DNA of 64,000 bases, from the NCBI GenBank assembly GCA_025351405.1, contig JANXVZ010000027.1, positions 21,275-85,274 of the forward strand. Reading direction: 5' to 3'. A model generated the notes under the pieces. The model made no database searches. It saw nothing but the letters and a program-made list of their open reading frames with translations, and was not told the DNA's origin. Positions 1,053-16,960 of the stretch are shown piece after piece. A program made the translations under genes and the position numbers. Numbering within the stretch: position 1 is the stretch's first letter; each line of letters starts with the position of its first letter. Origin of the DNA: Sphingomonadales bacterium (GTDB lineage Bacteria > Pseudomonadota > Alphaproteobacteria > Sphingomonadales > Sphingomonadaceae).

Positions 1053-3344
1053 TCAGGCTCGGCGCATTGCCGCGGCTGTCGGCAACGGTCGGCGGCCGGT
1101 GCTGCGGGCAAGCGCCGCATAGATCCGGCCGAGGTCGGATGACAACAGGGTAGTGGCCAGATTGTCGCCATCGGGGTCTGTGGTGACGCGCTTCATCAGG
1201 GTCTCGAACGTGTCAAGGAACAGTTTCGCCTCGTCGCGAAATTCCGGGTCATGCTGGTGCAGGCGGGCAATCCGGCGCGCCGAATCCTTGTCGAGACCGC
1301 GGGCGACGGCGCGCGAGAAGACGCTCCGGTCGCCCTTGAGCCAGCGTTGCCAATCGCTGTCGCCGACATCGATCGAAAGCAGGCGCGCAACATCGACGCT
1401 GGCGAGGTTGAGCGCTTCGACAAGCTTTTCCGAGCGCGCTGCGAGTGTGTCGCGGGCGCGCACGGCAAAACGTGCGTCGGCTTCGGCGATCCGCGCTTCG
1501 ACTTCGGCGGCGGAGGTGGCAAGCCCAAGGATTTGCCGGGTCAGCCGTTCGGACACAGTGCCCGCAGCGGCAGCGGCCTTGTCTGCGGCGGCTTCGACCG
1601 CTGCGATCTGGGCGCGAACGGGTTCACCGAACGCTGTTTCGGCGCGGCTGGCACCGGCTTGCAGCGCCTGTTCCGCCTCGGCGACAACGCCGGCAAACAT
1701 ATCGCGCATCTGGTCGGCAGTCGTGGCCGCGGCAGCTCCGATGCCCTCGACTGAAGCAAGGAGGTGCTGTGACGCCTTGGCGGCAGTGGCGACGCCATGA
1801 TCGCGGATGCCGTCGAGCGCGGCGCGCGCCGTGTCGAACTCCCCCGCGAGTTGCGCCGATAGCTCTACCAGGCGATTGCCTTCGCCCGCCATTTGCGCTG
1901 CCGCATCGCCGACCAGCGCGGCGCCATCGGTCATGGCGTCGTGCAGCGCGCCAACGTTTTCAAGCAGCGTCCGGGCCCGAGCGGCGATCGCGTCAAGGCT
2001 TTCCCCTGTCGTCGCAAGCTGCTGCCCGAGCACGAGATCGGCGGCGGCGATCGATTGGTGAAGCGCCCCGGCGGACGTATCGAGCCCGTCAAGCGCCGCC
2101 TGCGAACTGGCGAGCGGCGGCTGCAACGCCGCCAGCTGCGCGTGTAGCGAAGCCGACTGCGCATGGAGTGACGCCAGGCCTTCGCTAAGCGCGCCGACCA
2201 TGTTGGTGCCGCCGCCGTGAACATCGGCAATTTGCCGGCCGATGTCGACAAGGTGCGCCGCCATTGTCGCGGCGAGGCTGCTGCCCATCGTCTCGCCGCT
2301 GCCCTGGAAAGCCGTCAAACGGTCCTCCAGTTCGGCAAGCCGGCGCGCGATCTCGGCCGTCAGGCGTTCGCTATGGGCGTCCTGCGTTTCGAACTGCTGC
2401 TGCAACTGGCCGGCGGTGCGCAGCAACAGGTCGATGCGCTGGCTGAACACCCGGCTGCCATCGTCGCCGAACTGCTTGAGCTGCTGTGCTGTCGCAGCGA
2501 TGCTGTCCTGCATGGCGCGGCCGTGGAGCGCGACCTGCTCGCGAATCTGGTCGAGGGCTTCGGTGCTGCGTTCGAGCACGCCGTCGACGGCAGCATCGAG
2601 TGCGTAGGAGCGCTTTGACAACAGGTCGGTATTGCGTGCCGAGGTTTCCTCGATGCGCGCCAGCAACGCGGTCATCGTCGCGATCGCGGCGTCGGCCTGG
2701 ATGGCGGCTTCGTTGTGGCGGGCGCGGACGCTGGCCAGCATGGTATCGACACCGCGAACCTGGGTGGCGGTTTCCGCCGCGATCCGGCGCAGGCTGGCAT
2801 CGGCTTCGGCGGCATGTTCGGCAAAGCTTGGCAGCGCCGCAATCAACCCCGTTGCTGTGCTGCTGGCGTCGCGGGTCAGCGCCAATGCCTTTTCGGCGGC
2901 CGCATCGAGAGCTCGCGCCGTAGCGGCGAGGCCGTTGGCTTCGGCCGAGGTTGAAAGTACCAGCGCTTCGGTGTGTTCAGCCGAGCGCAGCAGTGCCGCA
3001 TCGATCCCGTCCAGTTCCGCGCGCAGGCCGTTGGCATGGCTGGTGGCACGTTCAAGCCGGAAATCGAGTGCTTCCATGTCGACCGTGCGACCAGCGGCGG
3101 GCAGCAGGCCGATGACGAGCAGCGCCACGCAGGCTGGCGGCAACAGCGCCATGACAATGGCCAGAACGTCACCAGGGCGGAGGGGCACACTGTGCGACAG
3201 GATCGCCGACGCCGCGACCGCCACCACCCACAGCCCGCACAGGACAAGGACACCGTACAGCGGCCAGCGGCGTTTCGGTTGAATCGACAATGCCAACGAC
3301 CGCATCGGCAGGCGCACCCCAGGTTTCCACAGCAGGTCGCTCAT
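1053..3344 (-). CDS. Two-TM, long coiled-coil protein, TipN-like polar landmark candidate
   Basis: Two N-terminal hydrophobic helices, about 550 aa of Ala/Leu-rich heptads, and a globular C-terminus (WQRWLKGDRSVFSR...LLSSDLGRIYAAL) recalling TipN-type C-termini. Confidence 0.6.
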   Translation of the reverse strand: MSDLLWKPGVRLPMRSLALSIQPKRRWPLYGVLVLCGLWVVAVAASAILSHSVPLRPGDVLAIVMALLPPACVALLVIGLLPAAGRTVDMEALDFRLERATSHANGLRAELDGIDAALLRSAEHTEALVLSTSAEANGLAATARALDAAAEKALALTRDASSTATGLIAALPSFAEHAAEADASLRRIAAETATQVRGVDTMLASVRARHNEAAIQADAAIATMTALLARIEETSARNTDLLSKRSYALDAAVDGVLERSTEALDQIREQVALHGRAMQDSIAATAQQLKQFGDDGSRVFSQRIDLLLRTAGQLQQQFETQDAHSERLTAEIARRLAELEDRLTAFQGSGETMGSSLAATMAAHLVDIGRQIADVHGGGTNMVGALSEGLASLHAQSASLHAQLAALQPPLASSQAALDGLDTSAGALHQSIAAADLVLGQQLATTGESLDAIAARARTLLENVGALHDAMTDGAALVGDAAAQMAGEGNRLVELSAQLAGEFDTARAALDGIRDHGVATAAKASQHLLASVEGIGAAAATTADQMRDMFAGVVAEAEQALQAGASRAETAFGEPVRAQIAAVEAAADKAAAAAGTVSERLTRQILGLATSAAEVEARIAEADARFAVRARDTLAARSEKLVEALNLASVDVARLLSIDVGDSDWQRWLKGDRSVFSRAVARGLDKDSARRIARLHQHDPEFRDEAKLFLDTFETLMKRVTTDPDGDNLATTLLSSDLGRIYAALARSTGRRPLPTAAAMRRA

Positions 3345-3471
3345 CGAACAACCGATGGCGTGGACTGCTTTGCAAGCTTGGCTAGCATGGTGATTGCCCT
3401 GTGCATACTCATCGTGGGACCAATGCTGCGGGGTTGGCGGTTGCCGGTTGTATCTCTACCAACGGCAACCG

Positions 3472-4515
3472 ATGGGCAGGCTTGAACGCGGACGACGACG
3501 ACGAGGCTGGCTGGCGCCGCTGCTGGCGTTGGGGGTCGCCGTCGTGCTTGCGGGTTGCGGTCGTGCCGGCGCACCGGCGTCGCGCCGCTGCCTGGCGGGC
3601 GCTTCGGCGCGCGGCGATGTCGCGATTCCTGCCGGCATCTTCTTGATGGGTGCCGATCCGCAGCGTGCCGAGGAGGGTCCGCCGCGACGGGTTCGCGTGG
3701 CGGCCTTCCGTATCGACCGCAGCGAAGTCACCAATGCCGAATTCGCCCAATTCGTCGCCGCAACGCATTATGTCACCGAATCCGAACGCGCGCCGGATGC
3801 GCGCTATTATCCGGGCGTTGCCAGGCGGGATCTTGTCCCGGCGTCGCTGGTCTTCGTCGGGGCATTGCCGGGCACACCGATCGATGACCCCGGACGCTGG
3901 TGGAAGGTGGTGCCCGGTGCTGACTGGCGTCACCCGACCGGACCGGGCAGCAGCATCGCCGGCAAGGCACAATTGCCGGTCGTCCATGTCAGCCATGCCG
4001 ATGCACAGGCCTATGCACATTGGCGCGGCCGTGACCTGCCGACCGAAGCCGAATGGGAATATGCCGCCCGCGGCGGAATCGATGGCGCGCGCTATGCCTG
4101 GGGGAACGCCGACCCGTTGCGCGACAACGCGCCCGGCGACCGCCCCCGCGCAAACATCTGGCAAGGGCCGTTTCCCAGCTTCGATGCGGGCGATGATGGC
4201 TTCAAGGCGCAGGCAGCGCCTGTCGGTTGCTTCCCGCCCAATGGCTATGGACTGTACGACATGGCCGGCAATGTTTGGGAGTGGACCAGCGGGCAGTATC
4301 CCCCTGAACCGAGCGGCATTGCCGGCCTGCCGCCGCAGCAGCGCCATGTCATCAAGGGTGGCTCGTTCCTTTGTTCCGAGAATTTTTGCTGGCGCTATCG
4401 CCCCTCTGCACGGCAACCGGGGCCGGCAGACAGCGGCGGCATCCACATCGGTTTCCGGACCGTCTTGCGCGCCGGCAGGATGGCGGCGCCCGCCGCTGGC
4501 GATGGAAGCCATTGA
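3472..4515 (+). CDS. Formylglycine-generating enzyme (SUMF1/FGE) family protein, predicted lipoprotein
   Basis: EVTNAEFAQFV, DLPTEAEWEYAARGG, NGYGLYDMAGNVWEW and KGGSFLCSENFCWRYR motifs. Lipobox-like VVLAGC after a basic/hydrophobic N-terminus. ATG 3472 preferred over the ORF-track start 3394. Confidence 0.9.
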   Translation: MGRLERGRRRRGWLAPLLALGVAVVLAGCGRAGAPASRRCLAGASARGDVAIPAGIFLMGADPQRAEEGPPRRVRVAAFRIDRSEVTNAEFAQFVAATHYVTESERAPDARYYPGVARRDLVPASLVFVGALPGTPIDDPGRWWKVVPGADWRHPTGPGSSIAGKAQLPVVHVSHADAQAYAHWRGRDLPTEAEWEYAARGGIDGARYAWGNADPLRDNAPGDRPRANIWQGPFPSFDAGDDGFKAQAAPVGCFPPNGYGLYDMAGNVWEWTSGQYPPEPSGIAGLPPQQRHVIKGGSFLCSENFCWRYRPSARQPGPADSGGIHIGFRTVLRAGRMAAPAAGDGSH

Positions 4516-4633
4516 GGCTTTCCATATGCGACATATCGTCGTAATGTTTCCATGCCGTACGGGATCCGCGAACTTATAACGCGATATGGCAGACCGTCGC
4601 GTCACGGTCCGACGCTTCGGGGGGAGCAGGCGT

Positions 4634-6463
4634 ATGGGTGTCCCTGTGGCAGTTGCGCGGTCAACGGACCGCCGTCTGTTCGTGCGGCATGTGTCACGCT
4701 GCGCGTACCTCCTCGGCGGTGCAGCGATCGCCGCGGGTCTTTTGGCCGGCACGCCGGTGGTGGCGCAGGCGGCACCGCAACCCGCGCGCATCGCGCCGAC
4801 CCGCGAGGAAATTGCGCCCTTCAAAGGTGACGTTGCCCCTGCGCGCAGCCGGCTGACGGTCGAAGGCAGCATCGAGCGCAGCCCCTGCGCCCTCGCTGAT
4901 CCGGCGTATTCGGCGATCCGCATCACCCTGACCCAGGCCAGTTTCAACAACCTCGGGCCGGTATCAGCCGGCGACCTGGAAGCCGCGTGGCGCGGTTATG
5001 TCGGCAAGGATTCGCCGATAAGCATCGTTTGCGAGATCCGGGATGCGGCGGCGACGCTGCTCCGCGCCAAGGGCTATCTGGCGGCGGTGCAGGTGCCGAC
5101 CCAGCGCATCGAGGGCGGCCAGGTCCGTTTCGAAGTGCTGTATGCACGGATGACGGCCGTGCGGGTGCGTGGCGATGCCGGGCGTGACGAGGCACTGGTG
5201 GCGCGGTATCTGTCGCATCTGACGGGCGGCGACGCTTTCAACAGCATCGAAGCCGAACGCTACCTGCTGCTCACCCGCGACCTTCCCGGGCTCGATGTGC
5301 GACTGGCGCTGAAGCCGGCCGGCACCGCACCCGGCGACATGGTCGGCGAAGTCAGCGTGCGGCGAACCCCTGTCGAAATCGACGCGAACATCCAGAATTA
5401 TGCGCCGCACGAAAGCGGGCCGTTCGGCGGTCAATTGCGGGCGCAGTTCCATGGCCTGACCGGGCTTGGCGACCGCACCATGGTGTCGGCGTACACGACA
5501 TCGGACTTCAAGGAACAGCAGGTCGTCCAGGTCGGCCATGACATGACGCTGGGCGGCCAAGGATTTCGCATCGGCGGGCACTTTACCTATGCCTGGACCA
5601 AGCCGGGGCTCGGCCCCGCCGTCCCCGACGTGCTGGCGCGGACGCTGTTTGCCAATCTGGAGGCGAGCTATCCCTTCATCCGCACGCAGAAGCTGTCGCT
5701 GGCGGGGGCGGCAGGCTTTGATTTCGTCAACCAGGACGTGCGGTTTGCCGGCCTGCCGCTGAGTCGGGACCGGTTGCGGGTGGGCTATGTCCGGCTCGAT
5801 GGCGATGCCGTCGACATGCGCGGCGATGGGCCGGGCGGCACGACGCTGTGGCATCTGTCGGGCAGCCTTGAACTGCGCCACGGCCTCGACATCCTTGCCG
5901 CCAGCCCTGATTGCGCTACCCACCTGGCGCTGTGCCGCGGTGTCGGCTTTGTGCCACCCAGCCTCTCCGCCGCCGACCCGACCGCGACCGTGGTGCGCTT
6001 TTCCGGGCTGGCCGAGCTGCGGGTCGCGCCGACACTCACCCTCGCTGTGCTGCCGCGAGCGCAAATATCGTCGGCGGCGCTGTTTGCCTTCGAACAATAT
6101 TCGGCCGGCAACTACACCGTTGGCCGCGGCTATGATCCCGGCGCGCTGATCGGCGACAGCGGTGTCGGTTTTACAGCGGAGGCGCGGCTCGATCGCATCA
6201 TGGTGATTCGCGAATACGCGCTCACCGCGCAGCCCTATGCCTTCATCGACAGCGCCTGGGTTTGGACGCGCAATGCAGCGCCGGGCTTCGATCCGCAGCG
6301 CCTCACCTCGGTCGGCGCGGGGGCGCGGCTGGCGCTTGCCGACCAGGCGCGGCTGGACATGACGCTGGCGATCCCGATGCGCAGCGTTGGAAGGACGCAG
6401 AGCGGCGATGTGCGCTTCCTCGTCTCGCTGACAACCAGGCTGCTGCCGTGGAGGACCCGCTGA
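4634..6463 (+). CDS. ShlB/FhaC/HecB-family two-partner secretion translocator (TpsB, Omp85 superfamily)
   Basis: POTRA-like segment (LLRAKGYLAAVQVPTQRIEGGQVRFEVL) and loop-6 motif GNYTVGRGYDPG with alternating beta-strand C-terminus. GGAG RBS before ATG 4634 (ORF track starts at 4586). Confidence 0.9.
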   Translation: MGVPVAVARSTDRRLFVRHVSRCAYLLGGAAIAAGLLAGTPVVAQAAPQPARIAPTREEIAPFKGDVAPARSRLTVEGSIERSPCALADPAYSAIRITLTQASFNNLGPVSAGDLEAAWRGYVGKDSPISIVCEIRDAAATLLRAKGYLAAVQVPTQRIEGGQVRFEVLYARMTAVRVRGDAGRDEALVARYLSHLTGGDAFNSIEAERYLLLTRDLPGLDVRLALKPAGTAPGDMVGEVSVRRTPVEIDANIQNYAPHESGPFGGQLRAQFHGLTGLGDRTMVSAYTTSDFKEQQVVQVGHDMTLGGQGFRIGGHFTYAWTKPGLGPAVPDVLARTLFANLEASYPFIRTQKLSLAGAAGFDFVNQDVRFAGLPLSRDRLRVGYVRLDGDAVDMRGDGPGGTTLWHLSGSLELRHGLDILAASPDCATHLALCRGVGFVPPSLSAADPTATVVRFSGLAELRVAPTLTLAVLPRAQISSAALFAFEQYSAGNYTVGRGYDPGALIGDSGVGFTAEARLDRIMVIREYALTAQPYAFIDSAWVWTRNAAPGFDPQRLTSVGAGARLALADQARLDMTLAIPMRSVGRTQSGDVRFLVSLTTRLLPWRTR

Positions 6464-9400
6464 TGCGCGCTTCTCGCCGATTTGCCGGGGCCTCGCTGGT
6501 TGCGATTGCGGCGCTGCTGGCGGCCCAGCCGTTGTACGCCCAGGCGTTCCAGGGAGCGCCGGTGACGAGCCTTGGCTCGGTCTTCATCAATCGCGCCACG
6601 CCGGGAGTGGACAATATCGCCGTGCTCGGTCCGCTGGCGACGATCAACTGGACGCCGACCGATACCGGCATAGGCGGCGGTGCCATCAACTTCCTGCCGA
6701 GCGGCAGCACCGTCAATTTCGCGTCGGCGCGGGGTGCGCCCTACACCGTGCTCAATCGCATCATCGCAGTCGATCCGGGTCGGGTCATCGCCTTCAATGG
6801 CGCAGTCAACAGCGATGGCATCGGGGCGATCTGGTTCTATGCCCCCGGCGGTATTCTTGTCGGCGCCAACGCCCGCTTCAACGTCGGCAGCCTGCTGCTG
6901 ACGGCGAACGATCCGCGCACCGACGCCAATGGCGGGTTCCTCCCGGGCGGCAACAGCTTCAGCCTCGCAGCAGCGGCGGGCAGTACGGCGGGGGTTACCA
7001 TTGCCGCCGGCGCGCAGATCAACGCCGCCCGCGCCGGCAGCTATGTCATCGCGGTGGCGCCGACTGTCACGCAAGCCGGCGCCATCACGGTCAACGGCTC
7101 GGCGGCGCTTGTCGCGGCGAACAGCGTCGATTTCACCCTCAACGCCGGGCTGTTCGACATCACCGTCACCGCCGGAACCGATGCGGGCGGCACGGCCATT
7201 TCCCATACCGGCATCACCACCGGTGCCGCCGGCACTGCCAGTGGCCCGCACCGGGCCTATCTTGTCGCGGTGCCGAGGAACGACGCCATCACGCTGTTCG
7301 TCGGCGGCGCCGGCAGCCAGCTCGGCTTCGATATCGCCGGTGCGGCGGATGTGGCAGGCAACGCCATCATCCTGTCGGCGGGGCACAATGTTTCGGGCGA
7401 CACCATCGTCAGCCAGGCCGTCAATGGCGTTCGGTCAGACCTGACCATCGAACAGGGGTCCTATACCTCCAACCTGACCGGGGTTTCGACGGGCGACACG
7501 GTGGCCGCTTCGCTGTCCGGCAACACCAGCTTTGCCGCCGGACTCGATTTGACAGGCGTTTCCAGCGCGCAGGTCGGTGGGCGCAACGGCTTTGTGCTCT
7601 CGGTCGTCGGAGACACGCGCATCTCGACCGACGCGCGAAATGCCAGCGGCTTTGGCGGTGCCAGCCGGACCGGCGGCCAGTCGCTGCTGTTCGCCGAAGC
7701 TGGCGGCAGCATCAGCATTGGCGGCGGGGTAACGCTATCGGCCGATGGCGTGGGCGACGACAATTTCAACGGCATCGACGCGGGCGGCACCGGCACGGGT
7801 GGCATCGCATCGGTGTTCACCAAAAGTGGCGGCAGCATTGCCATCGTCGGCGACGCCACGGTCAATGCGCGTGGCACCGGCGGCAATGACGATGGCCCCG
7901 GTGGCGGCAGCGGTGTCGGCGGCTCGGCCCTGATGAGCGCGGGTGGAGCGGGGTCGCTGCGCATCGGGGGCAGCGCCACCGCCGATGCGACTGGCTTTGG
8001 CGGCAATTATGTCGGCGAATTCTCGGTCACGGCACCGCCGACCGGCAGCGGCGGCCAGGCCAGCATCGACGCTGGCGACAGCACGCTGGTCATCGGCGGC
8101 GGCATCACCATCCTCGCCGAGGGGCAGGGCAACAGCTTCGATACCTTTGCCGGCGGTGGCAATGCGTTTGGTGGCACCGCCGCGTTGTCCGTCGGCAATG
8201 GCACCCTCGCCGCGGCGCAGGATATCGTCGTTTCGGCACAGGCGCGCGGCAGCGGCCGGCGATCGGATGGCAACGGCGGCAATGCCACCGGGGGCACCGC
8301 GCAGATCTCGGCTAGCGGGCCGGGCAGCATTACCAGCACCGGCAGCTTCGTCAGTGTCGATGCCCAGGGCCTCGCCGGCCCCGGTGATACGAACCTTGGC
8401 GGCACCGGCGGCGTCGGCGGCGTCGGCGGCATCGGTAGCGGCGGGCTGGCGCAAATCGCGGCGGTTGGCGGCAACTTGCAGTTCCTCGCCTCGGACGCCG
8501 ACCTGCGCGTCGACGCCAGCGGCAGCGGCAGTTCGGGCAACACCGGCAGCGCGGGCTTTGGCGGCACCGCCAGCATCGAGGCGCAGGGCGGCGGCACCAT
8601 CCGCATCGATGCACGCGTCACGGTTGCGGCCACAGCGACTGGCGGTGACAGCCAGGCCTTTGGCACGGGCGGCAACGCCACCGCCGGCAGTGCCATCGTG
8701 CAAACGGCAGCGGGTTCGGCTGCGTCGCTGCAGTTCATCGATACGCTCGCCATCGACGCCACGGCCATCGGCGGCAATGGCGGCGGCGCCCTCGCCAGCG
8801 ATGGCGGCAATGCGACCGGGGGGCAGGTGCAGTTGCGGGCACTGTCGGGAAGCGTCAACGTTGCCGGCGGTGCCGCGCTGTACGCGGAGGCACGCGGCGG
8901 TGGCGCAGGTGTCGGCGCATCGGGCCTTGGCGGCGGGCGCGGCGGCGCGGCCCAGGGCGGTGTGGTTGCCGTCGCCGGAAGCGGCGGGATACTGCAACTG
9001 GCGTCCGGCCTCGATATCTTCGCCAACGCCAGCGGCGGGCAAACCCTCGCCGGCGATGGCGGCAGCGGGGCCGGCGGCAGCGCACGGATCGTGGCCGATG
9101 CAGCGGGCGATGTGCTGGTTGCCGGCGCGGTCAATGGCAAGGCTTCGGGGTTCGGCGCCGCGGGTGGCGGGCTCGGCAACGGCGGCGCCGGCACTGGCGG
9201 GCTTGTGCAGGTGCGGGCCAATGACGGCACGATCGGCCTTGGCGATGCGCTGCAATTGACGGCTGCGGGCGTTGGTGGCGGCGGCGGCGGCGCGGGCGGA
9301 GCCGGGGGTTCCGGCGTCGGCGGCAACGCAGCCTCGATCGTCGACGGCGGCAGCATGGCGGTAGCCGGCGTGGTGATGCTCGACGTAAACGGCACCGGTG

Positions 9401-11868
9401 GCGACGGCGGTCGCGGCAGCATCTTTGGACCGGGCGGGGCGGGCCTTGGCGGTTTTGGCATCGCCGGGGCCGGCCCTGCTGCGGTCGCCGGCGGCGCCAG
9501 CGACAACCGCGGCGCCGGCCTGTCGATTTCCGCCAATGGCGTCGGCGGTGCCGGCGGCACATCGGGCACCAGCCAGTTCGGCAGCGCCCGCCTGGGCGTC
9601 GACGGCGGCACCGCCAGTTTTGGAACAGTCATGCTGGCGGCGGCTGGCGTCACCCCCGTGGCTGTCGATACCCGGTCAGGAATCGTGGCGCGCAATGGCA
9701 GCATCAGCATCGGCGCGCCGGTGCTGGAAAGCTTGCCGGGAGACTTTGCCCTGGGGGCCGACAACGCCCGGATCGATGTCACCGGCGCAATCGATATCAG
9801 CGCCGGTGCGAGCATCCTCGCCAATTTCGATGGCGCGGCCGTTGCAACGCCCGGCGTCATCAGCGCCGACGCGATCGTGCTGCGCGCGCCCATCGGCATC
9901 GACACGCTGGCCGGCCTGGTGTCGGCGAGCACCATCGCGCTTTCTTCCGCCGGCGCCATCCGCGTCGGTGACCTGGCGGCGCTGGCTGGCATCGACGCGC
10001 AAGCCGGGGGCACGCTGATGACCGGCAATGTTGATGGCGGTGCGCTGGTGACATTGCTCGCCGGCACGGGAGTCATCGTCGGCAACGTTCGGGGCGAGAC
10101 AGACATCAGTATCGTCGGCGGCAGCGATGTCACCACGGGCATTGTCAGTGCCGGCGATTCCATCCGCATCGCGGCCGGCAGCGATGGCCGTGTTCGTACG
10201 GCGGCGCTCGTTGCCGGCCTGCTGCGGCCATCGCGAGACCCGGCAGCAGGCTATCAAATCGGCATCAGCGGCGATGGAGGGGTGAGCATAGGGGATGTTT
10301 CCGCGCTCGGAACGGTTGCATTGCAATCGATCGGGGGTGACATCGACGCCGGCACGGTCACGACCCGGCGCTCGGTCGTCGCGCTCGCTGCTGGCAACGT
10401 CGGCCTTGGCGGCGTCACCACCGGGGCAGGCGAAACGCTCTACATCGCCAACGCCGACAGCACGGCGCAACTGCCGGGGTTTGCTGCCGATCCGCTTGGG
10501 CCGCCGGCGGGATTTGATTTTGCGCGGCTGTTCGCGCTGGCGCCGGTGCGCGTCGGCGGCGGGATCAGCCTCGCCGGCCCGGTCAGCACCGGCACACTGG
10601 CGGCCGCGGCGGCGGCAGGGTTCGCCGCCGCAGGCAGCATTGCCGCCAGCCAGCGCATCGGCATCGACAGTGGCGGCGTCGCCGCCTTTGGCGGACGTGC
10701 CACCGCGCCGTTGGTCGCACTGCGTTCCCTGGATATTGCCATCGGCAACAATGGCGGCATCGGCGACGCGGCGACATCACGGATCAGCCTTGGCGTCGAC
10801 CCGGCGGCAAACGCGATCCGGCTGGGCGGTACGCTGTCGGCGGGCGAGGGCGGTGCGTGGCAACTCGACGCCAGCGAGATCGCCAGCCTGCGTGCCGATC
10901 AGATCGACATCGATGTGCTGGGGCAGGCACCGCAGGTTGTCATGGTCGATGCCTTTGCCCTTGTCGGTACGGCCGACGCCGCCGTTGGCAACGCCAATTT
11001 CGCGGTGCGGACGCCGGGCGCGATCGCGGTGACCGGTGCCGTGACCGCCAGCAGCCTCGCCGCCACCGATACCCTGCTGCTGCAGGCCGGCCAGCGTCTG
11101 ACCGTCGTCACCGACAGCGGCGGCGCGCTTAGGTTGAACGGCGCGGGCGCGCCCGATACGGCGGGTTCGGTCGCCGGGGTGCTGGACCTGCGCGCCGACC
11201 AGATCTGGGTCGGCACGGCCGCATTGCTGGACCAACTGGCAGCGGATCCGGCCTTTGCCGGGCGCGACTTGGCACTGGGTGCGACCCCTGCGCAAGCCGA
11301 TATCGCCGGCGCGATCGGTGGCGGCACGTTGCGCATCAGCAGCAGCGGCAGCGTCCTTATCCAGAACAGCGGCAATGTCTTCCAGCGCGCCGGCTTCAGC
11401 GTCGGTAGCATGACGATTACCGCCACAGCCAATGCGGCTGGCAGCGCGGCCGGCTCCGGCCTCACCGATGTCGTCATCAACGGCCGGGCCTTTGGTACGA
11501 CCGGCGTGCTCATCAACCAGCACACCATCGACCAGATCGCCTTCGCCCCGGCGCTGGCGAGCTACACCCCGACATCGAGTGTCAATGGCTGCATCATCGG
11601 CGCCACCTGCATTCTTTATGACACCGGATTGTTCCGCTCCATCGCCAACATTTCGCCCAACATCCGCGAATTGACCGAAGCCCGGCAGCAGGCTCGCGAC
11701 CGCGCCCGGGACAGCGCCGAGCGATTCCCGCAATTGCGTATCGACAAGCTGATCGATGCGCATGCCGTCACCAGCGAGCCGCCTATCGACGAGCCGATCA
11801 CCAGCGGGGCGAATTCCAGCCTGTGGCTCGGTAGCGCCCCCACATCGGTCGAGGGAGCGCCGAAATGA
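6463..11868 (+). CDS. Large exported filamentous-haemagglutinin-like adhesin (TpsA), about 1801 aa, Gly/Ala-rich beta-helix
   Basis: TGATG overlap with tpsB and GGAGG RBS at 6450. Sec signal MRASRRFAGASLVAIAALLAAQPLYA; TPS-domain-like INWTP...VLNRI...FYAPGGILVGANARFNVGSLLLT; recurring GGNATGG-type repeats. Confidence 0.88.
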   Translation: MRASRRFAGASLVAIAALLAAQPLYAQAFQGAPVTSLGSVFINRATPGVDNIAVLGPLATINWTPTDTGIGGGAINFLPSGSTVNFASARGAPYTVLNRIIAVDPGRVIAFNGAVNSDGIGAIWFYAPGGILVGANARFNVGSLLLTANDPRTDANGGFLPGGNSFSLAAAAGSTAGVTIAAGAQINAARAGSYVIAVAPTVTQAGAITVNGSAALVAANSVDFTLNAGLFDITVTAGTDAGGTAISHTGITTGAAGTASGPHRAYLVAVPRNDAITLFVGGAGSQLGFDIAGAADVAGNAIILSAGHNVSGDTIVSQAVNGVRSDLTIEQGSYTSNLTGVSTGDTVAASLSGNTSFAAGLDLTGVSSAQVGGRNGFVLSVVGDTRISTDARNASGFGGASRTGGQSLLFAEAGGSISIGGGVTLSADGVGDDNFNGIDAGGTGTGGIASVFTKSGGSIAIVGDATVNARGTGGNDDGPGGGSGVGGSALMSAGGAGSLRIGGSATADATGFGGNYVGEFSVTAPPTGSGGQASIDAGDSTLVIGGGITILAEGQGNSFDTFAGGGNAFGGTAALSVGNGTLAAAQDIVVSAQARGSGRRSDGNGGNATGGTAQISASGPGSITSTGSFVSVDAQGLAGPGDTNLGGTGGVGGVGGIGSGGLAQIAAVGGNLQFLASDADLRVDASGSGSSGNTGSAGFGGTASIEAQGGGTIRIDARVTVAATATGGDSQAFGTGGNATAGSAIVQTAAGSAASLQFIDTLAIDATAIGGNGGGALASDGGNATGGQVQLRALSGSVNVAGGAALYAEARGGGAGVGASGLGGGRGGAAQGGVVAVAGSGGILQLASGLDIFANASGGQTLAGDGGSGAGGSARIVADAAGDVLVAGAVNGKASGFGAAGGGLGNGGAGTGGLVQVRANDGTIGLGDALQLTAAGVGGGGGGAGGAGGSGVGGNAASIVDGGSMAVAGVVMLDVNGTGGDGGRGSIFGPGGAGLGGFGIAGAGPAAVAGGASDNRGAGLSISANGVGGAGGTSGTSQFGSARLGVDGGTASFGTVMLAAAGVTPVAVDTRSGIVARNGSISIGAPVLESLPGDFALGADNARIDVTGAIDISAGASILANFDGAAVATPGVISADAIVLRAPIGIDTLAGLVSASTIALSSAGAIRVGDLAALAGIDAQAGGTLMTGNVDGGALVTLLAGTGVIVGNVRGETDISIVGGSDVTTGIVSAGDSIRIAAGSDGRVRTAALVAGLLRPSRDPAAGYQIGISGDGGVSIGDVSALGTVALQSIGGDIDAGTVTTRRSVVALAAGNVGLGGVTTGAGETLYIANADSTAQLPGFAADPLGPPAGFDFARLFALAPVRVGGGISLAGPVSTGTLAAAAAAGFAAAGSIAASQRIGIDSGGVAAFGGRATAPLVALRSLDIAIGNNGGIGDAATSRISLGVDPAANAIRLGGTLSAGEGGAWQLDASEIASLRADQIDIDVLGQAPQVVMVDAFALVGTADAAVGNANFAVRTPGAIAVTGAVTASSLAATDTLLLQAGQRLTVVTDSGGALRLNGAGAPDTAGSVAGVLDLRADQIWVGTAALLDQLAADPAFAGRDLALGATPAQADIAGAIGGGTLRISSSGSVLIQNSGNVFQRAGFSVGSMTITATANAAGSAAGSGLTDVVINGRAFGTTGVLINQHTIDQIAFAPALASYTPTSSVNGCIIGATCILYDTGLFRSIANISPNIRELTEARQQARDRARDSAERFPQLRIDKLIDAHAVTSEPPIDEPITSGANSSLWLGSAPTSVEGAPK

Positions 11869-14800
11869 GGATTTGCGCGCTTCTCCGATTGGCCGTGCCA
11901 ATGGTTTCGGCATTGGCGGCTCCGGTTGCCGCCCAAGGGCTCAAGCTTGCGGACAGCTTTCGCGTCGGCACGGGCGGCGTGCTGTGCACGGCGCAATCGG
12001 TGGTCAATGATGGTGTGCTGGTCGGGATGTTCGACCGTGGCTACACCATCGTCTGCCGGGATGCCGCGACCCCCGTCGGCAAGTTGTTCGTGCTGCGGGC
12101 CGGCGGCGTCGACCCCGCCCTCCGGCTGTTGACGGCGCGCAAGGACGACATCAGTTGCGCCTCGCCTGCAATCGTCACGATACCGGGCATGACGGGCGTT
12201 ACCCGCGCCGAATGCCGGTCCGGGGCCCTGGCCTATGCCGTCTATCTGCACCGTGTCGGCAATAGTGTTTATGCTGCCGAGGGCCTGGCCGGCTACGGAT
12301 CGGCGTTGCGGCTCGGGCTGCGTTCGCTTGTCGCGGACACCGTGGTGCCCGGTGATGTAGAAGTTGCCGCGACAGAGGCTGGCGATCCGGCGGCGTTCGC
12401 ACGCGTGCAGGCGGGCAGCCTCGACCCCGGCCAGGCGCTGGCGGAGGGCTACAGCCGCAACAACGCCGCCAACTATGCCGAATCCGCTGCCTTTTTCGAT
12501 ACATTGGCGCAGCGCAGCCGTGAAGGCAGTGCCGGTTTTGACCGTACCGCGGAATATCTCGCCAACCAGGCACTGCAACAGTCCAACCTCGGCAATTTCG
12601 CGGAGGCCGATGCGCTGTTCGCCCGCGCCGAATCTGCTGCCGATCCCGCCGACCCGCAGATGTTCCGGATGCTGCGCAACTATCGCGGCATGCACGCCCT
12701 CAACCGCGGTGATGCCGATGCAGCGCTGGTGCAACTGCGGCGAACCCGTATCGAGAGTGACCCGGGGCAGGACCGGGAGCGCCTGCGCGGCGGTTTCATC
12801 GATGTGCCCATTGCCCAGAAGCTCAACAGTGGCGATGCCGCCCTCGCCCGGCTCAGCGGTGTCGATATCCGGCTGACCGACGCCGAACGGATCGCCATCT
12901 ACAACGCACAGGGCCAGTACCTGCAGGGTATCGTGCTGAGGGACCAAGGCCATGATGGCGAAAGCCGGACAGCGCTGGCGAGCGCGATTGCGCAGCTCGA
13001 CCGGGTGCGGAATGGCCGGGTGCTCAGTGTTGCCTGGTTGAAGGCGGCCGCCTTTGCCGAACTGTCGGCCCTTGCCGAGCGCGGTGGCCGGGCGACCGAG
13101 GCGCTGAAGGCGCTGGAGCAGGCGGTGTTGCTGTTGCAGGCCGAATATCCGGAATCGGCAGCGCTGCTGGCAGCCAAGGCGCGCCTCGCGGCGCTGCTGG
13201 CGCGGCAGGGCAATGTCGATGCCGCGCAGGCGCTGTTCCGCGAGGTGGTGCGTGCCAGCCCGGCGACACCGGGGGCAGGGCCGGCGGTACGGATGCTGTT
13301 CGCGCCCTATTTCGCCCTGCTTGTCGACCGCGCAACGGCGGCGTCGCCATCGGCGGCGGCGGACTTTTTCGATGCCAGCCAGATCCTCGCGCGGCCCGGC
13401 GTGGCGCAGACGCAGGCCGTGCTGGCGCGCGAGCTTTCGGGCGGACATGACGCCGCCGCCGGGCTGTTTCGCCAGTCAATCACCCTGTCGCGCGACATCG
13501 TGCGGAGCGAAGTGGACATTGCCCGGCTGGCGGCGAAGCCGTCGCTCACCACCGACGAGGCCGCCGACCTCGTCGGCGCGCGCGCCTCGCGTGAGCGACT
13601 GGGTCGGGACCAGACGGCAATCCTGGCGCGGTTGTCGGAATATCCGCGTTTCCGTGTGCTTTCCAATGCCAGCGTCGGGCTTGCCGACTTGCAGGGCAGG
13701 CTGCGTCCCGGCGAGGCCTATTACAAACTCGTGCTGATCGGGGACGCCGCTTATGGCCTGCTGGTTTCCGCCGACCGCGCGCAGGTCTTCCGCGTCGGCG
13801 CCACCGGCGCTGCCATCGGTACGATGGTGGCGAGTTTGCGCGATACCATCGTCACCATCGAGAATGGCCGCCCCGCCACCTATCCATTCGATGCCGTGAC
13901 CGCGCGCAAGCTTTACCTGGCGCTGTTTGGCCCGGTCGATGGCACCATGGCAAGCGTGCATCACCTGATCTTCGAACCCGATGGGGCATTGCTGCAGTTG
14001 CCGGTCAACCTGCTCATCGCCAGCGACGATGGCATGGCGGCCTATGCGGCCCGCCTCGCCGACACCAATGCCGACGCCTTTGACATGCGCGGCATCGTCT
14101 GGCTGGGACGCGACCGCATCGTTTCGACAGCGGTATCGCCGCGCAGCTTCCTCGACAACCGCGCCATCCCGGCGTCGAAGGCGCCGCGCAGTTACCTCGG
14201 CCTCGGCCAGAACGCCCCGCCATCAGCCGCCGTGGCCAAGGCTCCGCGCGACACTTGCGATTGGCCGCTGTTCAACTGGAACAACCCGATCCAGCCCGCC
14301 GAATTGCGCATCGGCGCAGCGATGGTCGGCGGCGGCACTGCGGATGTCGTCACCGGGGCTGCCTTCACCGATACGGGGCTGGCGGCGCGCGGTGACCTCG
14401 ACCGCTTCCGCATCCTGCATTTCGCCACCCACGGCCTCGTTACGGCTCCACGCCCGGAATGTCCGGCCCGCCCGGCGCTGTTGACGTCGTTCGGCCACGC
14501 CACGTCTGATGGCTTGCTCTCGTTCCGCGAGATATTCGATTTGAAGCTCGACGCCGATACCGTCATCCTTTCGGCTTGCGACACCGCTGGCACCGCCACT
14601 GCCGCCGCCACCCGCGAAGCCGGCATCGCCACCGGCGGCAACTACGCCCTCGATGGCCTTGTACGCGCCTTCGTCGGCGCCGGCGCCCGCACCGTCATCG
14701 CCAGCCACTGGCCGGTACCCGATGGATATGACGCGACCAAGACACTGATTACCGGGCTGTTCGCCGATGAAGGCGGCATTAGTGTCGGCGAAGCGTTGCG

Positions 14801-14906
14801 CGTTTCGGAAGTGCGGATGATGGACCGTGCCGAAACCTCGCACCCCTATTACTGGTCGGGTTTTGCCATCATCGGCGATGCGGCCAAACCGCTTTCGACG
14901 CGATAG
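11865..14906 (+). CDS. Exported TPR-CHAT (caspase/HetF-associated) protease
   Basis: Signal peptide, TPR-like helical middle region, and CHAT catalytic motifs ILHFATHGL (His) and VILSACDTA (Cys), plus FVGAGARTVIASHWPV and HPYYWSGF. ATGA overlap with tpsA. Confidence 0.92.
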   Translation: MRICALLRLAVPMVSALAAPVAAQGLKLADSFRVGTGGVLCTAQSVVNDGVLVGMFDRGYTIVCRDAATPVGKLFVLRAGGVDPALRLLTARKDDISCASPAIVTIPGMTGVTRAECRSGALAYAVYLHRVGNSVYAAEGLAGYGSALRLGLRSLVADTVVPGDVEVAATEAGDPAAFARVQAGSLDPGQALAEGYSRNNAANYAESAAFFDTLAQRSREGSAGFDRTAEYLANQALQQSNLGNFAEADALFARAESAADPADPQMFRMLRNYRGMHALNRGDADAALVQLRRTRIESDPGQDRERLRGGFIDVPIAQKLNSGDAALARLSGVDIRLTDAERIAIYNAQGQYLQGIVLRDQGHDGESRTALASAIAQLDRVRNGRVLSVAWLKAAAFAELSALAERGGRATEALKALEQAVLLLQAEYPESAALLAAKARLAALLARQGNVDAAQALFREVVRASPATPGAGPAVRMLFAPYFALLVDRATAASPSAAADFFDASQILARPGVAQTQAVLARELSGGHDAAAGLFRQSITLSRDIVRSEVDIARLAAKPSLTTDEAADLVGARASRERLGRDQTAILARLSEYPRFRVLSNASVGLADLQGRLRPGEAYYKLVLIGDAAYGLLVSADRAQVFRVGATGAAIGTMVASLRDTIVTIENGRPATYPFDAVTARKLYLALFGPVDGTMASVHHLIFEPDGALLQLPVNLLIASDDGMAAYAARLADTNADAFDMRGIVWLGRDRIVSTAVSPRSFLDNRAIPASKAPRSYLGLGQNAPPSAAVAKAPRDTCDWPLFNWNNPIQPAELRIGAAMVGGGTADVVTGAAFTDTGLAARGDLDRFRILHFATHGLVTAPRPECPARPALLTSFGHATSDGLLSFREIFDLKLDADTVILSACDTAGTATAAATREAGIATGGNYALDGLVRAFVGAGARTVIASHWPVPDGYDATKTLITGLFADEGGISVGEALRVSEVRMMDRAETSHPYYWSGFAIIGDAAKPLSTR

Positions 14907-14935
14907 GATGTCACACTGCAAAGCCCTGGACCGCG

Positions 14936-16960
14936 TTGTTGGCGGCGCTTGAGCTCTTGACTTCAAGATCCGGGGAACGCTCACGCCTTGGCGCCGTGCT
15001 TGCGCAGGTCGGCACCGGACGGCTGCTGCTCACCCTGGCGATGTTCGGCGCCGCCGTCCTGCTGGCGCGATTTGCCTGGGATGTGCCGATGGCGCTGACG
15101 GCGGAGCGGGCGCTTTACGATGTGCGTGCAACCCTGATGGCGCCGCAGGTGGACCAGGATGATCGTATCGTGCTGGTGGTGTTCACCGAAGATACCCTTG
15201 CAGCGACGGGCAAGCGTTCCCCCCTCGACCGGGCGTTGCTGGCGGCAGCACTGAACCACATCGATGCACTCGCACCCCGCTCCATCGGGGTCGATATCCT
15301 CCTCGACCAGGCGCAGCCCGAGGATGCAGTACTGGTGCCGGTGCTGGCTGCGATGCGGACGCCGACGTTTCTCGCCTATGCCTCCGCCAGCGACAATGCC
15401 GAGTTCATCAAGCCGTGGCAGGAAACACATCTGCGGGCGTTGCTAGCCCGGCTGGGCGCCGCGCCGGTGCGGCCCGCCACCATTCGCCTCGATGTCGATT
15501 CCGACGGCACGATGCGGAGCTGGCCCAACCCGGTCACCGCCCGGCGACCGCCACTCCTCGTCGATGCCGTGACCGGAAGCGACGCCATGCGCGGCTATCG
15601 CGGCGCGGCGCTCCAGCGCTTGCCGCGCACCCGTGAGCGGCCGGTGTTCAGCGTGTTGCCGATCGACCTGTTCGGCGATGCCGACGCCGCAGCGGCACTG
15701 TCCGACCAGATCAAGGGGCGTATTGTCCTCGTCGGCGCCGATCTCGCCGATGCCGATCGCTTTTCGACGCCGGCGACGCGTGTCACCGGCAACAGCGTAC
15801 CGGGGGTGGAACTGCATGCAGCGCTGATCGCCCAGGCGCTCGACAGCCGGCAACCGCAAGTCGTTTCAAGGGGGGTGTTATGGCTTTTGGCACTGGCGGC
15901 AGTAGCGGGCGGTGCGCTGACTGGGGGACTCGACCTGCGGGCGCGCTTCGTGGTGCCGTTGGCGCTGTTGCAGGTCATGGCCATCATCGCGCTGCCCTTC
16001 GGGCTCCAGCATCATGGCGACTTCGACACGCTCGGCTACCCGGCTGTCGGCCATGCCGGCGGCTGGCTGCTGGCCCTGCTGGCGGCGAGCACCACGGCGC
16101 GGCTGGTCGGGGCCGAACAGCGCCATTTTGCCCAGAGCGCGCTCGGCAGATATCTGCCGCGTGACGTGGCGCAGACCATCCTGCGCGATCCCGGCAAGCT
16201 GGCGCTGCACGGCGAGCGCCGCGACATCGTTGCACTGTTCACCGATATCGAAGGCTTCACCAGCCTGTGCCAGTCGTTGCCGCCGGAAACTGTCGCGACC
16301 TTGCTCAATGAATATCTCGAAACCATGAGCGCCATCATACTTGCGCATGGCGGCACCATCGACAAGTTCGTCGGCGATGCCGTTGTCGCCTTCTGGGGTG
16401 CGCCGATCGCGCGGCCGGACGATGGCGACCGCGCTGTCGCCGCCGCAATCGCCCTGGGTGCCGCGGGCGCCCGGCTGGCACGGCCGGTGCCGGATCGGGT
16501 CTCGATCGGGCGCACGCGGGTCGGCCTGCACCGCGGCGAGGCGGTGGTCGGCAATTTTGGCGGTGAGGGTCGCATCCAGTATACAGCGCTCGGCGACAGC
16601 ATGAATGTCGCGGCACGACTCGAAGGCGCCAACAAGCAGTTGAAGACCGGTGTTCTCGTCAGCAGCGAGGCAGCCACAGGTGTTTCCAGCGCACGGTTCC
16701 GGCCGATGGGACGGGTGCGGGTCCGTGGCCGGGCGCGGCCGATCGACCTGTACGAGCCGTTGCCCGGCGGTGTTGATGCGGACATGGCTGCCGCCGCCCT
16801 GGAATTGGGCGTATTGTATCGACGTTTCGACGGTGGCGACGCCGGCGCATTGGCGGCGCTCAGGGCAATGTCGGCGGCGTCGCCGGGCGATGTCGCCCTG
16901 GCAGGATTTGTTGGCCGCCTGGAAGCGGTTGGACCGGGAGGGTGCTATGATCTCGATTAG
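14936..16960 (+). CDS. CHASE2-sensor class III adenylate/guanylate cyclase (likely adenylate cyclase)
   Basis: N-terminal TM, CHASE2 motifs (RIVLVVF, SPLDRALLA, IGVDILLDQ, PGVELHA), three TMs, then cyclase motifs LFTDIEGFT, DKFVGDAVVAFWGAP and YTALGDSMNVAARLEG. Lys/Thr specificity residues are of the ATP type. Confidence 0.92.
   Translation: MLAALELLTSRSGERSRLGAVLAQVGTGRLLLTLAMFGAAVLLARFAWDVPMALTAERALYDVRATLMAPQVDQDDRIVLVVFTEDTLAATGKRSPLDRALLAAALNHIDALAPRSIGVDILLDQAQPEDAVLVPVLAAMRTPTFLAYASASDNAEFIKPWQETHLRALLARLGAAPVRPATIRLDVDSDGTMRSWPNPVTARRPPLLVDAVTGSDAMRGYRGAALQRLPRTRERPVFSVLPIDLFGDADAAAALSDQIKGRIVLVGADLADADRFSTPATRVTGNSVPGVELHAALIAQALDSRQPQVVSRGVLWLLALAAVAGGALTGGLDLRARFVVPLALLQVMAIIALPFGLQHHGDFDTLGYPAVGHAGGWLLALLAASTTARLVGAEQRHFAQSALGRYLPRDVAQTILRDPGKLALHGERRDIVALFTDIEGFTSLCQSLPPETVATLLNEYLETMSAIILAHGGTIDKFVGDAVVAFWGAPIARPDDGDRAVAAAIALGAAGARLARPVPDRVSIGRTRVGLHRGEAVVGNFGGEGRIQYTALGDSMNVAARLEGANKQLKTGVLVSSEAATGVSSARFRPMGRVRVRGRARPIDLYEPLPGGVDADMAAAALELGVLYRRFDGGDAGALAALRAMSAASPGDVALAGFVGRLEAVGPGGCYDLD

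Follow-up and report, generated by a model that had tools for sequence, protein, structure and literature searches.

The window analysed here is a stretch of 64,000 nucleotides from a Sphingomonadales bacterium (assembly GCA_025351405.1, contig JANXVZ010000027.1, positions 21,275 to 85,274 of the forward strand). It contains a two-partner secretion (TPS) cassette in which tpsB, the gene of the outer-membrane transporter, is followed by tpsA, encoding a beta-helical exoprotein, and by the gene of an exported TPR-CHAT protease (Table 1). The stop codon of tpsB overlaps the start codon of tpsA (TGATG), and the TGA stop of tpsA overlaps the ATG start of the CHAT gene (ATGA). The present study deals with the C-terminal end of TpsA, which carries a sharply defined and previously undescribed tail module that includes a pair of cysteines. 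Inheritance of this module is one-to-one with that of the exported TPR-CHAT protein in many Sphingomonadales, as well as in some Alphaproteobacteria outside this order.

The two partners of the secretion pair differ in how clearly they match known families. TpsB is recognized by PF03865 with 37.8 bits (cut-off 22.7), its match to PF08479 being weak (21.9 bits, under the cut-off of 24), and the juxtaposition of tpsB and tpsA is also kept in L001, L002, L060, L061, L094, L095, and L099, L numbers being used here for individual loci. TpsA, composed of 20% Gly and 18% Ala, begins with an evident Sec signal (MRASRRF...LYAQA), followed at residues 79-249 by a divergent TPS domain that scores below the cut-offs of both PF05860 (24.8 bits against 33.5) and TIGR01901 (23.6 bits against 29.1). 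The remainder is a long passenger that is poor in Cys (2 in 1801 amino acids, aa) and, over the residues modelled with AlphaFold2 (1472-1710), rich in beta-structure. The CHAT protein has a Sec signal peptide, MRICALLRLAVPMVSALAAPVAAQG, and intact motifs of the His/Cys dyad (HFATHG and LSACDTAG), together with a weak TPR_12 match (19.6 bits, below the cut-off of 30.1).

Table 1. Features of the TPS-CHAT cassette, of the TpsA C-terminus and of neighbouring genes. Positions are those of the window unless a locus is named.
Feature	Position	Strand	Basis or remarks
FGE-sulfatase/SUMF1-like gene	3394-4515	+	PF03781 1.7e-74; 70 bp upstream of tpsB
tpsB, outer-membrane transporter (POTRA_2 + ShlB barrel)	4586..6463	+	PF03865, PF08479
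tpsA, Gly/Ala-rich beta-helical exoprotein, 1801 aa, only two Cys	6463..11868	+	Translation of the open reading frame (ORF)
C-terminal module of TpsA, residues 1633-1801, ~170 aa	11359..11865	+	IQNSG...VVINGR...SSVNGC-x5-C, spacer, DEPITSGANSSLW, short tail; alignments A1, A3, A4
NGCIIGATC, Asn + Cys pair, end of the modelled beta-helix	11584..11610	+	Invariant columns N76, C78, C84 (alignment A1)
Spacer, residues 1717-1775, 59 aa	11611..11787	+	Variable, mostly disordered; predicted charged helix IRELTEARQQARDRARD; semi-conserved FPQLRIDKLID
Terminal motif DEPITSGANSSLW	11788..11826	+	Followed by 13 residues, the last being Lys
Exported TPR-CHAT protease, 1013 aa	11865..14906	+	PF12770 1.8e-48; signal peptide
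CHASE2 / class III nucleotide cyclase membrane sensor	14936..16960	+	PF05226 3.5e-25, PF00211 2.5e-15
Fifth gene, ~235 aa	16947..17654	+	No Pfam family; co-conserved with the cyclase
TpsB of the third TPS pair of the genome	L063 1146-2933	-	

The initial annotation of this DNA had drawn attention to a Cys pair about 90 aa from the TpsA C-terminus, and translation confirms its description: the protein has only two Cys, C1710 (codon 11590-11592) and C1716 (codon 11608-11610), both within NGCIIGATC and located 92 and 86 residues from the end, and the 85-aa tail that follows reads ...IRELTEARQQARDRARD...DEPITSGANSSLW..., as had been quoted. At the Cys content of about 0.8% seen in the two flanking proteins (5/625 and 8/1013), about 14 Cys would be expected in TpsA. 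Since low Cys contents and closely spaced pairs are the norm in type V passengers (PMC8151025), this rarity alone is weak evidence, and the main evidence that the pair matters is, at the level of sequence, its conservation.

HMMER searches with the last 352 aa of TpsA against 1.84 billion representative proteins returned 219 matches at E<=1e-3, of which 115 reached E<=1e-10. Among the best 150 of the 219, nearly all C-terminally complete proteins have a Cys pair 70-125 residues from their end. Where the terminal motif described below was accompanied by sufficient upstream sequence, 116 of the 117 representatives kept C-x4-8-C; the spacing among representatives is x6 in 70 and x5 in 49. The Asn and both Cys are invariant alignment columns among the homologues, and in close full-length relatives the pair likewise constitutes the sole Cys of the mature protein. 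Poor conservation of the pair, which the initial annotation had named as what would speak against its proposal, is not what the homologue alignment revealed, the pair being nearly invariant, and this distribution argues that it is not there by chance. A word-index search with the same 352 aa, saturated by low-complexity words, yielded 3 relatives only, and 10 fragments when combined with a profile.

Based on the alignments, the module can be divided into five successive parts. The first comprises the final rungs of the beta-helix, with QNSG, AGF.G.GGL, and (V/I)INGR motifs, and leads into the Cys pair proper, S-x-V-N-G-C-x5-8-C. The spacer that comes next is conserved in length (median 60 aa, interquartile range 53-67, minimum 39) and not in sequence; across the family, Asp, Glu, and Pro are abundant in it, the net charge has a median of -8, Trp and Cys are absent, and Tyr is very rare, while the spacer of the window TpsA is charge-neutral and partly helical. 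The fourth part consists of a semi-conserved P...L-I-D block followed by the terminal motif, (D/E)P-V-T-S/G-G-G-N/D-x-x-L-W, in which P and T never vary and V, S, G, G, and L hardly do (alignment A3). Another 14-21 residues, often with Lys last, complete the members of the family. The idea that the terminal motif cleaves itself at an Asp-Pro bond was dropped, as Glu-Pro is at least equally common in the family.

A second Cys pair (x7-8) occurs at the extreme C-terminus of 23 of 115 members, the window TpsA not being among them, and often lies within a DxDxDG-like acidic loop, as in WDCDRDDDGDCDE. Several representatives, including P0049, P0069, P0071, P0078, P0087, and P0119, end in W-D-C-D-x-D-D-D-G-D-C-D-E, an acidic loop that could be closed by a disulfide and resembles DxDxDG calcium-binding motifs. 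No family was matched by the module in Pfam (E<=10) or NCBIfam, and a sequence-profile comparison with the PDB gave nothing below E=1, apart from two matches at chance level. Foldseek comparison with PDB folds also produced no match, the resemblance to beta-helix proteins being weak and non-significant.

An AlphaFold2 model was computed from a 15-row alignment, with C239 of the model corresponding to C1710. Residues 1472-1710 form a confident beta-rich solenoid, with a predicted local distance difference test (pLDDT) score of 80-95 over most blocks, which ends in an N-G hairpin bearing C1710; this residue is part of a short strand in a block of pLDDT ~86. In both the alignment and the model, the beta-helix adjoins the Cys pair directly, without any linker between them. 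The tail is non-beta and has pLDDT values below 50, except for one helix (model residues 268-282). Such low values, together with conservation of length only, fit a spacer acting as a flexible linker.

The association of the module with the CHAT gene was followed through several sets of genomes. A profile scan of genome contigs seeded with a single protein found nothing; with a profile from a 6-row alignment, the motif sufficed to retrieve 15 loci from named genomes, belonging to Sandarakinorhabdus, Sphingomonas, and unclassified Sphingomonadales. In these 15 loci, as in the metagenomic loci L001 and L002, the CHAT start is fused to the tpsA stop (ATGA or TGATG in 17 of 17). The gene next to tpsA encodes a CHAT protein of about 1015 aa in L001 and L002 and also in L036 and L037, two fragments of Erythrobacter metagenome-assembled genomes whose tails are 25-30% identical.

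In a sample of the order comprising 301 genomes, the module was detected in 64, all within the window's own family (63 of 174 when the genome of the window is left out). Inspection of 30 loci from this sample revealed CHAT immediately downstream of tpsA in 22; in the remaining eight, tpsA is followed by cysS, and CHAT was found 12-14 kb upstream on the same strand in 5 of the 5 genomes tested, giving the alternative gene order chat-tpsB-tpsA and a total of 27 loci with CHAT among the 30. The direct succession of tpsA and cysS (cysteinyl-tRNA synthetase) was seen in eight genomes of three genera (L038-L045), and this neighbourhood probably reflects synteny only. A sample of 401 genomes from the phylum was searched twice, once with the CHAT protein and once with a module profile that had been broadened. 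Full-length TPR-CHAT was matched at 13 loci and the module also at 13; these were the same places, in 9 genomes, and none of the 46 genomes having CHAT-domain-level matches only contained the module. All CHAT partners inspected have either a signal peptide or a lipobox.

The genome of the window harbours a second tpsB-tpsA-chat cluster on contig C21 (L061; tpsB 1743-3533, tpsA 3523-13731, and CHAT 13728-16895). With 3402 aa, its TpsA is highly divergent and was missed by the first module profile. It ends in ...ARANGCLIGSSGGGC-(spacer)-FDPLVGTSNEALF-...-CPPGGPSPCADQGKPK, and thus displays NGC-x7-C, the motif DPLVGTSNEALF, and a second, terminal Cys pair, CPPGGPSPC. Clusters of two other alphaproteobacterial families, with CHAT partners that have a signal peptide or lipobox, encode TpsA proteins ending in FNAC-x6-C ... 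DPVVTGTGSEEIW (L094) and FNGC-x5-C ... DDPRFTFSNTGKDGLW (L095). The design common to these three proteins is N-[GA]-C-x5-8-C, a spacer, and DP..G..N..L[WF]. A 2513-aa frame in L095 that resembled a TpsA-CHAT fusion was rejected as an off-frame artefact of high-GC DNA, the two genes being separate. A third TpsA of the same genome, 829 aa long and encoded on the reverse strand from window position 62332 past the window end to position 86095 of contig C22, differs from these proteins: its TPS domain is canonical, CC doublets occur, and the C-terminus is a long run of (PA)n/(PT)n repeats. It has neither a CHAT neighbour nor the C-terminal module. Other CHAT proteins of this genome, such as that of L062, are not TPS-linked.

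Downstream of CHAT, the CHASE2 cyclase is a frequent, non-universal fourth gene of the cassette, which was found in L001, L036, L037, L048, L049, L053, L057, L058, and L059. Together with the ~235-aa ORF it follows CHAT in most relatives, neither being matched in L002, L051, L054, or L060. Homologues of this fifth gene range from 232 to 247 aa in L001, L036, and L037; in the window it overlaps the cyclase ORF, and its probable start at 16947 is preceded by a GGGAGGG Shine-Dalgarno sequence. Upstream of tpsB, the FGE-sulfatase-like gene was examined as a Cys-modifying partner and rejected, there being no CxPxR at the pair and no such gene in L001 and L002; since it is unconserved at homologous loci, it is probably unrelated to the cassette.

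TpsB has Cys residues of its own. An alignment of the window protein with those of L001, L002, L060, L061, L094, L095, and L099 revealed two conserved Cys in the POTRA region, separated by about 50 residues (ERSPCALADP and ISIVCEIRD in the window), both being present in 6 of the 8 sequences and each in 7 of 8. The close TpsB subfamily has an additional C-x6-C (SPDCATHLALC) ahead of the VRGY-like L6 loop. These residues might serve in structural disulfides, or as partners for the pair in TpsA.

The initial annotation had proposed that the TpsA tail is a periplasmic anchor and the target of the adjacent CHAT protease, with HMW1 and CdrA as models. The non-beta character of the tail, the export signal of CHAT, and their strict co-inheritance are in favour of the core of this proposal, whereas a "hook" of the HMW1/CdrA type goes further than the evidence. 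Being exported, CHAT can reach only those parts of TpsA that are periplasmic. The best-supported reading, by association, is thus that the tail is the periplasm-side part of TpsA, by which the protein is probably kept on the cell, and the partner or target of CHAT. Besides the TPS domain, nothing in TpsA but the module was found conserved across CHAT-linked paralogous families, which is why it is read here as the element coupling TpsA to the protease. We would put at about an even chance the broader proposal that the Cys pair is the hallmark of a retention-and-processing module defining those TpsA proteins that work with an exported TPR-CHAT protease.

Under this proposal, TpsA would be exported from its N- to its C-terminus through the TpsB pore and would fold outside into a beta-helix. 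As the end of the chain leaves Sec, the periplasmic Dsb system would oxidize the pair into a small loop on the N-G hairpin; genes of the DsbA family are present in the genome of the window, which is an enabling condition only. The loop would mark, and probably stiffen, the boundary at which export halts, so that the ~60-aa spacer and the (D/E)PVTSGGNxxLW peptide would remain in the pore and the periplasm. The TPR-CHAT protein, or alternatively the POTRA domains of TpsB, might then dock on the terminal peptide. Finally, CHAT would cut the tail, probably in the spacer, and this cut would decide between retention of the fibre and its maturation or shedding. We infer all of these steps, from disulfide formation and topology to binding and cleavage; the 7-10-residue Cys ring may itself be the stopper.

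Several points weigh against this proposal. The module shows no similarity to the HMW1, HxuA, or CdrA anchors in Pfam, PDB-profile, and fold comparisons, a direct alignment with the HMW1 and CdrA tails not having been made. As the pair lies 86-92 aa from the end and directly against the helix, TpsA held by the loop would stay bound after a periplasmic cut in the spacer, which means that the loop does not anchor TpsA or that CHAT does not release it. Type V passengers often bear closely spaced Cys, and small loops pass the pore (PMC8151025), while distant members of the family have extra C-x1-3-C pairs inside the passenger. One representative, P0115, lacks both Cys (NGL...Q in place of NGC...C) and keeps the terminal motif; this protein may be a natural Cys-less variant or the result of a sequencing error. 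No candidate cleavage site could be named in the tail. The linked genomes are also close kin, so that the linkage counts overstate independence; nevertheless, the linkage holds across two gene orders and deep sequence divergence.

Other explanations of the pair and its tail have to be weighed against the same data. A true cysteine hook, i.e., a disulfide loop too bulky for the TpsB channel, would leave TpsA from C1710 onward in the periplasm, where it would plug the pore. The pair is invariant, consists of the sole Cys of the protein, and coincides in position with the end of the folded passenger, as expected of a hook; there is precedent in HMW1, HxuA, and CdrA, and the ring size (x5-8) resembles that of the second terminal pair (x7-8) of other members. 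We nevertheless consider a hook of this kind unlikely. In type V secretion, small loops can generally be translocated (PMC8151025), and with no linker N-terminal of the loop there is, unlike in CdrA, no periplasmic protease site between passenger and hook. A hook also leaves the long conserved tail and its terminal motif unexplained, and no sequence relation to the HMW1/CdrA anchors is detectable. Moreover, about 20% of the members, the window TpsA excepted, have a truly terminal second pair with a closer resemblance to known hooks. This separate pair, being better placed as a hook, favours an extracellular staple, in which the disulfide would cap the last rung of the helix against fraying or proteolysis without taking part in retention, and the periplasmic element would be the terminal motif alone, with the second pair where present. 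The position of C1710 in a confident terminal strand after the N-G hairpin of the AlphaFold2 model agrees with such a cap, exported passengers typically have Cys pairs with close spacing (PMC8151025), and the geometry permits release by a cut in the spacer. We regard the staple as conceivable and rather doubtful, given that conservation in 116 of 117 representatives is stronger than expected of a mere cap and that no other helix rung of the window TpsA needs a disulfide.

The translational coupling of tpsA and CHAT in 17 of 17 loci suggests a stoichiometric and constitutive partnership, and would fit a periplasmic pro-piece like that of FhaB, needed for the timing or chaperoning of secretion and invariably removed. 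The role of CHAT would in that case be maturation rather than regulated release, and the Cys loop would mark the mature C-terminus. This seems fairly improbable for a tail of 85 aa, against ~1200 aa in FhaB, in which no homology to the FhaB prodomain was seen, and the CHASE2 cyclase present in many cassettes hints at regulation. It is also conceivable that CHAT acts on another substrate, such as a CHASE2-sensor ligand or TpsB, or that CHAT in its turn is a partner or a passenger; the module would then serve TpsB recognition or pore closure only. The lack of an identified cleavage site in the TpsA tail and the occurrence in the same genome of CHAT proteins unconnected with TPS are compatible with such a role. 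We hold it to be highly improbable in view of the 13/13 correspondence between the module and the TPR-CHAT subfamily in the 401 genomes, of the two gene orders, and of the module being, beside the TPS domain, all that was found conserved between the paralogous families of TpsA.

In a further and more far-reaching scenario, TPR-CHAT would be more than a release protease and might act like a sortase, or generate a signal, within a new three-part type Vb system. It would read (D/E)PVTSGGNxxLW as a sorting signal, kept beneath the pore by the Cys loop and spacer, and then either transfer the cut TpsA end to an envelope acceptor, in the manner of the clan CD enzymes GPI8 and PorU, or free the tail peptide as a periplasmic ligand of the co-encoded CHASE2 cyclase. 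We estimate this scenario as distinctly improbable; its second form would mean, if true, that pulling or losing a surface fibre is converted into a cyclic AMP signal.

No paper describing a CHAT-TPS system was found in the full-text literature searched, which is not proof of absence. To our knowledge, few type Vb adhesins are held by a C-terminal disulfide domain (HMW1, HxuA, and CdrA), a dedicated periplasmic releasing protease is known for CdrA/LapG only, and substrates are known for very few bacterial CHAT proteases. With its invariant N-G-C-x5-8-C, length-conserved spacer, and terminal peptide motif, the module described here shows no detected relation to known anchors and provides a sequence signature by which such systems can be recognized. 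Its tail is a specific candidate for what a bacterial CHAT protease may cleave, and the CHASE2 cyclase, where present, offers a handle on the signal detected by an orphan sensor class.

Among known systems, the functionally nearest is the type Vb system CdrA/CdrB-LapG of Pseudomonas aeruginosa, followed by the HMW1/HxuA anchor and the FhaB prodomain. In the Haemophilus influenzae systems HMW1/HMW1B and HxuA/HxuB, a short disulfide-bearing C-terminal domain locks the TpsA protein in or under the TpsB pore. The HMW1 pair is said to lie within the extreme C-terminal ~20 residues, a position reportedly established by Buscher in 2006. The pair of the window TpsA, in contrast, lies 86-92 aa from the end at the boundary of the helix, and no homology between the two was detected. 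We know of no dedicated protease for the release of HMW1. A periplasmic location of the disulfide-bearing domain is described for HMW1 and HxuA as well as for CdrA (PMC5422565, PMC4694147, PMC8151025), and the last 66 aa of HxuA, invisible in the crystal structure, are expected to be periplasmic (PMC5422565).

The FhaB protein of Bordetella resembles the proposed window tail in having a retained C-terminal part that is removed proteolytically, and in the succession of a Pro-rich stretch and a conserved C-terminus. The C-terminal prodomain of FhaB, which contains a Pro-rich region and a conserved extreme C-terminus, is periplasmic and is degraded by periplasmic proteases. It is ~1200 aa long and is not known to contain such a Cys pair, and the periplasmic and surface proteases that process it are unlinked and belong to other families. 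The review PMC5422565 cites Noel 2012 for FhaB.

CdrA has, like the window TpsA, a C-terminal tail with a Cys pair, and its tail is thought to be periplasmic. A dedicated periplasmic cysteine protease, LapG, removes this tail and sheds the adhesin, a role to which the one proposed here for CHAT can be likened. The LapG cut is proposed to fall before the hook, which lies in the last ~48 aa (PMC4694147). LapG itself was rejected as the releasing protease in the present case, as no match to PF06035 was obtained in the window's genome, which is 98% complete; no TAAG site was seen in the 85-aa TpsA tail. The two proteases belong to different families, that of the window being a clan CD TPR-CHAT protein and that of CdrA a transglutaminase-like enzyme (Peptidase_C93). 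The order of elements also differs: in CdrA, the helix is followed by the cleavage site and then the hook, whereas in the window TpsA the helix and the Cys pair are followed by a spacer of ~60 aa and then by the conserved motif. The protease gene is unlinked for CdrA and translationally coupled to tpsA here. Both systems have a tie to a second messenger, through LapD and cyclic di-GMP for CdrA and through the CHASE2 cyclase here, which accompanies the cassette in many loci.

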